In this document: positions 17,896 to 18,333 of the stretch, piece after piece
How the letters are laid out: each line of letters opens with the position of its first letter
Numbering within the stretch: the stretch's first letter is position 1
Sequence record: OZ035763.1
Direction: 5' to 3' (one strand)
Source of the DNA: Teseptimavirus PDP351P2
DNA length: 40,327 nucleotides
The notes under the pieces: generated by a model
Told to the model about the DNA's origin: nothing
The model's input: the letters and a program-made list of their open reading frames with translations, nothing else
Database searches by the model: none
Position numbers and translations under genes: made by a program

Positions 17896-18333
17896 ATGAA
17901 GATTTGTTCTAAGTGTGGGAATGGAAAACCGCTCACCGAGTTCGGAAAGGCTTCCCGCATGAAGGACGGTCTCAGAACTTGGTGTAAGGAGTGCGTCCGC
18001 AAAGATAACAATGCGAGATACCATAAGCACGATTCTGAGAAGCGAGAGGCTCACAGGTGGAGTTCGCGCAAATCTCAAATCAAGAAGTATGGCCTGACAG
18101 TAGAGCAGTACGAAGAACTATGGAACTCTCAGGAAGGAAAGTGTAAGATATGTGGTGACGCTATAATGGCACACTCATCTGAGAGGCATAAGGTAGCTTG
18201 TATTGACCACGACCATTTGACTTTGAAGGTTCGTGGACTTCTATGTTGGCACTGCAATATTGGCTTAGGTAAATTCTTCGATTCTACAGATAGGTTGGAG
18301 AATGCCATAAGGTATCTTAAAGGAGAACTCTAA
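17896..18333 (+). CDS. Endonuclease VII-like (Endonuclease_7 family) protein with N-terminal Cys cluster, at the gene 4.7 position, 145 aa
   Basis: CSKCGNGKP...CKEC; [25 protein letters not shown]...[27 protein letters not shown]...YLKGEL; track ORF 17770..18333 is an upstream extension. Confidence 0.8.
   Translation: [145 protein letters not shown]

Follow-up and report, generated by a model that had tools for sequence, protein, structure and literature searches.

The complete, circularly permuted genome of the T7-like phage Teseptimavirus PDP351P2 (OZ035763.1; 40,327 nucleotides (nt), hereafter the window) encodes a protein of 145 amino acids (aa) in the slot of gene 4.7, directly upstream of the DNA polymerase gene 5. 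This 4.7-slot gene is very likely a free-standing gene for a homing endonuclease of the F-CphI or 'DHHRN' family, which carries the endonuclease VII (Endo VII) motif. We regard it as a likely mobile homing nuclease that displaced gene 4.7, and neither as an ortholog of gp4.7 nor as a second resolvase. We see an even chance that this lineage of 145-aa nucleases has targeted the coding sequence of the Exo II motif of T7-type polymerases in at least three genera, probably more, and that carriers escape by a compensated multi-nucleotide recoding (F58-H-N-G61-H62 to G58-H-N-F/I61-T62) dragged along with the nuclease gene.

A nuclease of the F-CphI family at the 4.7 slot

The gene and its control region comprise the following features.

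17870..17892, + strand: class II T7-type promoter phi4.7, -17 to +6, with +1 at G17887 and a perfect core CGACTCACTATAGG at 17875-17888
17887..17895, + strand: Shine-Dalgarno region of the nuclease gene, GGAGGTGGT, read from the window sequence, with GGAGG at 17887-17891
17896..18333, + strand: 4.7-slot nuclease gene, Endo VII-motif or F-CphI ('DHHRN') family, free-standing, 145 aa, ATG start, TAA stop
17896..18000, + strand: N-terminal Cys4 zinc ribbon (C4, C7, C30, C33), from an alignment of 37 sequences, the same module being present in F-CphI
18079..18321, + strand: beta-beta-alpha-metal catalytic domain, aa 62-142, from the Pfam domain coordinates

The core CGACTCACTATAGG aligns base for base with the annotated phi4.7 promoter of T7, and the + strand of the window holds 16 T7-type promoter-like sites against 0.2 expected by chance. 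The Shine-Dalgarno sequence is kept as GGAGG(Y)(R)G in all nuclease-gene carriers in an alignment of six carrier genomes. At the 3' end, the final A of the TAA stop codon is also the first base of the gene 5 ATG at 18333, and the ribosome-binding site of gene 5 sits within the end of the nuclease gene. Transcription of the nuclease gene is predicted to start at phi4.7 in the middle (class II) period and to occur by read-through as well.

An earlier note on this DNA had described an Endo VII-like gene of 145 aa that follows phi4.7 and lies immediately upstream of DNA polymerase, with a cluster of cysteines at the N-terminus of the product. This description is borne out by the promoter alignment and by domain searches. 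The protein matches Pfam PF02945 (Endonuclease_7) with 73.4 bits (cutoff 23.6; E=1.4e-20) over aa 62-142, covering profile positions 5-81 of 82, and PHROG 2633 'endonuclease VII' with E=2.8e-41. A large protein database held no sequence identical to the 145-aa protein, the best match being 85%. The N-terminal cysteines C4, C7, C30 and C33 vary little or not at all in the 37-sequence alignment. The ribbon that they form has weak Stc1 and Lar-like profile matches and is presumed to be a DNA-binding or specificity module. In the catalytic domain, the zinc ligands C83, C86, C117 and C120 align to T4 Endo VII residues C23, C26, C58 and C61, and the catalytic or near-catalytic residues D104, H105, H107, R113 and N121 align to T4 D40, H41, H43, R54 and N62. 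The window protein retains every one of the eight cysteines and the D/H/H/R/N residues, and these positions are fully or almost fully conserved across the 37 homologs. Residue roles in the motif are taken from PMC6083498.

A structure predicted with AlphaFold2 from the 37-sequence alignment has a predicted local distance difference test score (pLDDT) of 94.5. The best fold matches of the model in the PDB, found with Foldseek, are Hpy99I (E=1e-4, 154 columns) and T4 Endo VII (E=9e-4, 92 columns). A phmmer search against the PDB aligned residues 69-128 to T4 Endo VII 9-69 and residues 103-142 to the C-terminus of Hpy99I. Against close homologs, the ratio of nonsynonymous to synonymous substitution rates (dN/dS) is 0.02-0.07 at a synonymous divergence (dS) of 0.36-0.53. 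The substitution pattern indicates that the gene is under strong purifying selection and kept functional.

F-CphI (ORF177 of cyanophage S-PM2) is a biochemically proven free-standing homing endonuclease and the founder of the 'DHHRN' family (Fang et al. 2018, PMC6083498). The 4.7-slot nuclease aligns with it end to end, zinc ribbon included (residues 2-142 to F-CphI 10-139; 36% identity, E=2e-22), and by these comparisons F-CphI is the closest characterised protein. The same study separates a resolvase clade, with an N-terminal motif and full-length resemblance to T4 gp49, from an F-CphI-like endonuclease clade with a C-terminal motif; the T7-like podoviruses of the endonuclease clade all encode endonuclease I and need no other resolvase (PMC6083498). 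The window protein shares the features of the endonuclease clade, with the motif at aa 62-142 of 145, a full-length alignment to F-CphI and endonuclease I encoded in the same genome. The earlier note had offered two roles, homing nuclease or resolvase-type enzyme. The first is favoured by the F-CphI alignment, together with the rare occurrence of the gene at a constant site, its incongruence with the flanks, its purifying selection, its remnants in other phages and the divergent tract of gene 5 described below.

Replacement of gene 4.7

An alignment of the window with T7 DNA shows ~95% identity through gene 4.5 and the phi4.7 promoter, stopping at ...CTCACTATAGGAG. The promoter is also the upstream edge of the replaced cassette, with T7 homology ending at ...TATAGGAG. 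Homology to T7 resumes at the gene 5 ribosome-binding site AGGAGAA. The break just past the promoter and the resumption at this site indicate that gene 4.7 was replaced, with one gene-sized cassette exchanged for another of nearly equal length. The nuclease has no similarity to the 135-aa gp4.7 of T7 (BLASTP E=0.09 over 13 residues). T7 gp4.7 matches PHROG 4023 with E=3.8e-62, whereas the nuclease does not match this family. In the Berlinvirus Salmonella phage RN5i1, the nuclease gene (94% identity) is preceded by a true homolog of gp4.7, 46% identical to that of T7 (E=2e-27), and followed by gene 5. The presence of both genes in RN5i1 means that the nuclease gene and gene 4.7 are independent entities. 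The earlier note had left open whether the gene is the ortholog of gene 4.7 or a replacement. The missing similarity to gp4.7, the sharp cassette edges and the presence of both genes in RN5i1 settle this question in favour of replacement. Orthology was rejected on the BLASTP result, the different PHROGs and the precise cassette boundaries.

Distribution, probable mobility and decay

We retrieved 80 loci from IMG/VR by the N-terminus of gp5 and scored them for the content immediately upstream of gene 5. Two loci were uninformative for slot content and the others were distributed as follows.

68/80 loci: gp4.7 homolog
2/80 loci: nuclease gene, one copy internally deleted
1/80 loci: 3' remnant of the nuclease gene
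2/80 loci: HNH_3-type nuclease, one intact and one degenerate
5/80 loci: empty slot (T3-like)

IMG/VR had few close relatives of the nuclease and most carriers came from the GenBank phage collection. Of the 209 megablast phage records matching the region, only 3 cover the nuclease gene. Three genomes share the arrangement of the window.

AV103: nuclease protein 97% identical to that of the window
KFSA9: nuclease protein 97% identical to that of the window
WX1: nuclease protein 85% identical to that of the window

The gene always ends on the polymerase start codon, in Teseptimavirus, Berlinvirus and Przondovirus alike. Relatives with ~50% identity occupy the same polymerase-start site in Kayfunavirus, Pifdecavirus and the Aeromonas phage T7-Ah. 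The homolog in the Yersinia phage Rambo is just 42% identical and lies at the position of gene 13.5. The similarity of the nuclease gene does not follow that of its flanks. Between the window and RN5i1, the nuclease is 94% identical in aa and 92% in nt, with gene 5 at 73% in aa and 70% in nt. The comparison with WX1 gives the reverse pattern, with 78% nt identity for the nuclease gene and 93% for gene 5. Incongruence in both directions points to horizontal movement of the gene.

Several relatives preserve stages of decay. The IMG/VR locus L076 (1206-1520) has an in-frame deletion of residues ~36-82, between the two CK.C motifs, which leaves 104 aa. Salmonella phage Vi06 retains the last ~110 nt of the nuclease gene and CHRF_10027 only ~50 nt, in both cases directly before gene 5, and both 3' stumps keep the recoded polymerase allele described below. 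Together, the T7-like phages provide an unusually complete comparative series of the life cycle of a homing endonuclease gene, from insertion beside gene 4.7 (RN5i1) and replacement (window, AV103, KFSA9, WX1) to internal deletion (L076) and 3' stumps (Vi06, CHRF_10027). Other nucleases also land upstream of gene 5. The Klebsiella-phage contig L085 encodes a 143-aa HNH_3-like protein at 1076-1507, and L064 has a degenerate version of it at 1226-1507.

A divergent tract and a recoded Exo II allele in gene 5

The 5' end of gene 5 differs from the remainder of the gene in two nested features.

18333..18542, + strand: divergent tract, the first ~210 nt of gene 5, from sliding-window identity
18498..18527, + strand: putative immunity allele at codons 56-65 of gp5, within the Exo II motif, ATA GTA GGG CAT AAC TTC ACT AAA TTT GAT

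Over nt 1 to ~210, gene 5 of the window is 55-72% identical to T7 and to phage 13a, and identity reaches 90-100% over the remainder of exon 1. Compared with the carriers AV103 and KFSA9, identity in these 210 nt is 82-93%, and a blastn search with the tract returned KFSA9 and AV103 first, followed by two remnant-bearing Salmonella phages. A divergence boundary at ~nt 210-240 was found when AV103, KFSA9, WX1, Vi06, IL33 and L076 were each compared with their closest gene-less relative. Counted together, eight carriers or remnants diverge over nt 1 to ~210 in this comparison, with identity of 90-100% beyond that point. An independent nuclease lineage (~50% identical) in the Kayfunavirus phage UFJF_EcSW4 provides a replicate. 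Its gene 5 is 50-73% identical to the closest non-carrier over nt 1-300 and 83-100% thereafter, placing the end of the tract shortly past Exo II, although one carrier and a broad tract are too coarse to pinpoint the target. Such a pattern is expected if the gene spreads by double-strand-break repair that drags along the sequence between the gene and the break. We interpret the 210 nt as a co-conversion tract inherited with the nuclease gene. The guanine plus cytosine content is 41.9% in the first 210 nt of gene 5, 49.3% in the rest of exon 1, 48.5% in the genome and 44.7% in the nuclease gene; the low value of the tract is consistent with a foreign origin.

The first 80 gp5 codons were translated in all loci. 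Without the nuclease gene, 75/76 loci (T7-, T3-, K11- and Berlin-like) encode IVFHNGHKYD at gp5 56-65, with codons 58-62 reading TTC CAY AAY GGT CAC. The nine genomes that carry the gene or part of it as a remnant (window, AV103, KFSA9, WX1, RN5i1, IL33, L076, Vi06 and CHRF_10027) all encode I-V-G-H-N-(F/I)-T-K-(F/Y)-D instead, with codons 58-62 reading GGR CAY AAY TTC/ATA ACN. Over these 15 nt, the recoded version differs from the ordinary one at eight or nine positions. The whole window has no match to the presumed sensitive version with up to 3 mismatches. The stretch conforms to Nx3(Y/F)D, the consensus of motif Exo II in the proofreading exonuclease, with N60, Y64 and D65 in T7 numbering; we take Exo I to be D5/E7 and Exo III to be Y170/D174 in the same numbering. 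The recoded allele keeps the catalytic N60, Y/F64 and D65, and F58 and G61 are effectively swapped. A general description of the Exo motifs is available (PMC9324360).

RN5i1 separates the allele from the surrounding tract. Its gene 5 is native Berlinvirus at nt 52-165 and beyond ~187, and only nt ~166-186 (about 21 nt) are of carrier type. The narrowness of this patch argues that the recoded patch was retained in its own right and was not merely a contiguous hitch-hiker. We give a slight preference to the interpretation that the Exo II coding stretch is the cleavage target and that the recoded allele confers immunity on carriers. A link of the gp5 allele to the presence or absence of gp4.7 was considered and rejected, as RN5i1 combines gp4.7 with the recoded allele and T3-like phages with an empty slot keep FHNGHKYD.

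Several observations weigh against a homing nuclease that targets Exo II. The recoded allele occurs in 9/9 carriers or remnants and in 1/76 non-carriers, but the uncorrected Fisher p=2.4e-11 overstates independence, with approximately three genus backgrounds plus recombinants within Teseptimavirus in the sample. The allele might also have hitch-hiked as a marker of the donor lineage and not be the target; only RN5i1 separates the two cleanly. A scan of 2.9 million IMG/VR contigs for the recoded pattern recovered four contigs, namely IL33, L076, Vi06 and the gene-less L106 (IMGVR_UViG_3300034358_000001, 1501-1700). The latter has GHNITKYD and a gp4.7-like gene without the nuclease gene or a remnant of it. 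L106 may have lost the nuclease gene cleanly or may represent the source lineage of the resistant allele. The dS of 0.36-0.53 to the closest homologs suggests that the transfers were not very recent. In the active site, E65 of T4 Endo VII is replaced by L124, with a leucine also found in the active Hpy99I. The strong purifying selection on the gene would also fit a function of benefit to the phage.

Alternative explanations

The annotation of the database relatives suggests an enzyme like T4 Endo VII, a resolvase of Holliday junctions and branched DNA that would debranch replicating DNA before packaging. The catalytic motif and the fold core are indeed common to both proteins, and the GenBank relatives carry the 'endonuclease VII' annotation. 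The alignment to the T4 enzyme is nevertheless restricted to ~60 residues (69-128 to T4 9-69), and the protein stops 3 residues past the Pfam domain, without the ~85-residue C-terminal part of Endo VII. The figure of ~85 comes from an alignment with the T4 sequence, and the PDB alignment is independent of it. In the 4.7-slot protein the catalytic domain lies at the C-terminus, like that of the endonuclease clade (PMC6083498), and the genome already encodes a dedicated Holliday-junction resolvase.

14153..14608, + strand: gene 3, T7 endonuclease I, dedicated Holliday-junction resolvase, full-length match to PF05367 Phage_endo_I with E=1.1e-81

The 4.7-slot gene is missing from most relatives and decaying in some. 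A resolvase role is very improbable, and this half of the earlier proposal was dropped on the missing C-terminal domain of Endo VII, the F-CphI architecture and the presence of endonuclease I. Hardly any weight can be given to an inactive relic, an intact-looking reading frame that no longer cuts DNA. Homing endonuclease genes commonly decay after fixation, the window itself has one decayed copy (5963-6329) and relatives have remnants. The gene is nevertheless of full length compared with its homologs, with eight cysteines and the D/H/H/R/N residues intact, and a dN/dS of 0.02-0.07 at dS 0.36-0.53 is unexpected for a pseudogene.

A domesticated nuclease could benefit the phage by degrading host DNA or by excluding T7-like competitors through cuts in their polymerase gene. 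The low dN/dS, the tight coupling to gene 5 (shared stop and start, gene 5 ribosome-binding site inside the nuclease 3' end) and the middle-period expression together with the replication genes all fit such a role. However, the gene is rare and was lost repeatedly, leaving remnants, its phylogeny is incongruent with the flanks and the co-conversion tract follows it. We found no evidence for a non-specific nuclease activity. Exclusion of competitors by cutting their polymerase gene is the same act as homing and differs mainly in the beneficiary, so that sequence alone does not separate the two. Overall, we consider domestication unlikely, though the least so among the alternatives. Collaborative homing, in which the nuclease mobilises the group I intron of gene 5 and the intron protects the carrier by splitting the target, has close to negligible probability. 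Its appeal stems from F-CphI, the closest characterised relative, which acts with a psbA intron (PMC6083498), and from the joint presence of nuclease gene and gene 5 intron in the window, AV103 and WX1. Yet KFSA9, RN5i1 and IL33 combine the nuclease gene with an uninterrupted polymerase gene, and 13a has the intron with gp4.7. The intron lies ~1.96 kb downstream and has its own HNH_3 open reading frame (ORF), and the divergent tract in gene 5 reaches only to ~nt 210. Collaborative homing was rejected on this independent assortment of intron and nuclease gene.

Proposed mechanism and significance

From the comparison of genomes we infer that the 4.7-slot nuclease cleaves DNA, where it cuts and that it homes. 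Where a carrier shares its host cell with a related phage that has no nuclease gene, the protein would bind through its N-terminal zinc ribbon and cut with its beta-beta-alpha-metal site (D104, H105, H107, R113 and N121 plus the Cys4 zinc). The cut would fall in the 5' part of the DNA polymerase gene of the other phage, most likely at gp5 codons ~56-65 (...GTR TTC CAY AAY GGT CAC AAG TAY GAY). Recombinational repair from the carrier would then copy the nuclease gene, the ~170-210 bp up to the cut and the recoded, uncuttable allele (GGR CAY AAY TTC/ATA ACN...). On T7-like backbones, the conversion would also remove gene 4.7, which is swapped out because the donor lacks it. The carrier would be immune since its own polymerase has G58-H-N-F61-T62 and not F58-H-N-G61-H62.

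The mechanism predicts a ~20 bp target in T7 gene 5 (T7 codons 56-65). If true, a selfish element rewrites residues beside the catalytic Asp65 of the exonuclease in an essential textbook enzyme, and the nuclease is a very small one with a long defined recognition site. If confirmed, the protein would be the second characterised member of the F-CphI family and would explain a local mosaic of the polymerase gene that is able to mislead phylogenies or the engineering of T7-like therapeutic phages. The GenBank relatives of the gene are annotated only as 'endonuclease VII' or 'endonuclease'. These labels suggest a resolvase, and the evidence supports re-annotating these relatives as putative homing endonucleases. 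Putative homing endonucleases of the Endo VII-motif family have been known in T7-like phages since 2018, namely gp13.5 and intron-encoded members (PMC6083498). Literature searches on the slot, the gene or 'DHHRN' in T7-like phages returned only the 2018 family paper and genome announcements, and no paper on the 4.7-slot lineage or its target. The 4.7-slot nuclease belongs to an already known family, to which the target-site prediction and the decay series are added here.

A second Endo VII-motif copy and other nuclease genes

The window has a second, broken member of the family in the slot of gene 0.6.

5963..6329, + strand: decayed second Endo VII-motif gene, fused to gene 0.6, from tblastn matches in two reading frames and a three-frame translation

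A 256-bp deletion (junction 6079|6080) joins gene 0.6 to the catalytic half and removes the zinc ribbon, and a +1 frameshift at the G5 run 6228-6232 breaks the copy. The earlier note had called the two copies paralogous. The shared family holds, as the repaired 0.6-slot sequence matches PF02945 with E=1.8e-24. A duplication within the genome is not supported, with only ~31-36% identity between the two slots and 31% between the full-length form of phage CQ615 and the 4.7-slot protein. The 0.6-slot copy belongs to a separate lineage, seen at intact length in CQ615. The CQ615 copy (L119, ~1150) has a -1 frameshift at exactly the same spot as the +1 frameshift of the window, inside the codons of the conserved VRGLLC. 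The spot may be prone to mutation, a toxic nuclease may have been inactivated there more than once, or the homopolymer may have caused a sequencing error.

The closest records to the window genome are the Escherichia phages 13a and AV103 (~92-93% identity). Landmarks along the genome are the genes for terminase (~0.85-3.4 kb), ocr (5260-5622) and RNA polymerase (7494-10145). In total, the 40-kb genome has seven nuclease genes of homing-endonuclease families (three HNH_3, two intron ORFs and two with the Endo VII motif). The three HNH_3 genes are free-standing.

3482-3925: free-standing HNH_3 ORF after the terminase gene
10757-11173: free-standing HNH_3 ORF after gene 1
15124-15606: free-standing HNH_3 ORF before the primase/helicase gene

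The other nuclease ORFs of the genome are all HNH_3 or of the HNH type of PHROG 2081, in agreement with the earlier claim that the two Endo VII-motif copies represent a family distinct from the HNH_3 genes. The terminase large-subunit gene 19 (848-3444) is split, with aa 1-161 of T7 gp19 encoded at 848-1330 and aa 162-586 at 2167-3441. At the 836-bp insert (1331-2166), Rfam has a full-length match to a group I intron at 1291-1554 (49 bits, E=3e-11; gathering score 50), and the ORF of the insert at 1538-2140 matches PHROG 2081 'HNH endonuclease'. Gene 5 is interrupted after codon 653, with exon 1 at 18333-20291, the intron at 20292-20892 and exon 2 at 20893-21045. The gene 5 group I intron matches RF00028 at 20282-20882 (44.9 bits, E=4e-10; gathering score 50) and contains an HNH_3 ORF at 20377-20772. 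At gathering thresholds, Rfam gave no match anywhere in the window, both introns being only just below threshold. The same gene 5 intron arrangement occurs in 13a, AV103 and WX1 and assorts independently of the 4.7-slot nuclease gene.

Comparison with known systems

T7 gp4.7 (PHROG 4023) is a protein of unknown function. It shares the slot, the promoter and a similar length (135 vs 145 aa) with the nuclease but no sequence similarity, and gp4.7 is the usual occupant of the slot (68/80 loci). T4 endonuclease VII (gp49; PDB 1en7, 2qnc), a Holliday-junction resolvase, has the same beta-beta-alpha-metal core with a Cys4 zinc and D-H-x-H...R...N. The T4 enzyme, however, has the motif at its N-terminus, ahead of a C-terminal part of ~85 residues that the 4.7-slot nuclease lacks, and it has no N-terminal zinc ribbon. 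The distribution of the 4.7-slot nuclease is also sporadic and not universal. The type II restriction endonuclease Hpy99I (PDB 3fc3) is the best structural match of the predicted nuclease model, and the sequences of the two proteins closely resemble each other over the C-terminal 40 residues, with CxxCNxGLGxF...YLK in common. Hpy99I shows that the same fold is capable of sequence-specific double-strand cleavage. It is bacterial, though, with a methylase partner and another N-terminal domain, and no methylase accompanies the 4.7-slot nuclease.

Seg and Mob are examples of free-standing homing endonucleases of T4-like phages. These genes resemble the 4.7-slot gene in being optional genes between conserved genes that cut the neighbour in non-carriers and co-convert flanking markers. 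They belong to the GIY-YIG and HNH families instead, and homing is experimental there and deduced from comparative genomics here. The concept of 'intronless homing' by such free-standing enzymes is summarised in PMC6083498. Closer in family and architecture is the 'endonuclease VII' gp13.5 of phiYeO3-12, EcoDS1 and other T7-like phages, with ~42% identity. It differs by its insertion site between genes 13 and 14, its lineage and presumably its target. The family study places it among the members of the endonuclease clade and regards it as a putative homing endonuclease, given that endonuclease I is present in those phages (PMC6083498).

F-CphI remains the most informative comparison. In both proteins a CxxC...CxxC zinc ribbon at the N-terminus is combined with the catalytic motif of Endo VII at the C-terminus, at nearly the same length (142 vs 145 aa), and both are encoded by free-standing genes adjoining a conserved gene thought to be the target. 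Mutagenesis identified C84, D101, H102, R110 and N118 as essential in F-CphI (PMC6083498), and all five are matched in the 4.7-slot nuclease by C86, D104, H105, R113 and N121. The settings differ, with a T4-like cyanomyovirus and psbA as neighbour on one side and a T7-like podovirus and DNA polymerase on the other. The F-CphI gene lies downstream of its target and the 4.7-slot nuclease gene upstream of its presumed target. Self-protection differs as well. F-CphI relies on an intron that splits the target, whereas carriers of the 4.7-slot nuclease apparently rely on a recoded target, without collaborative homing.

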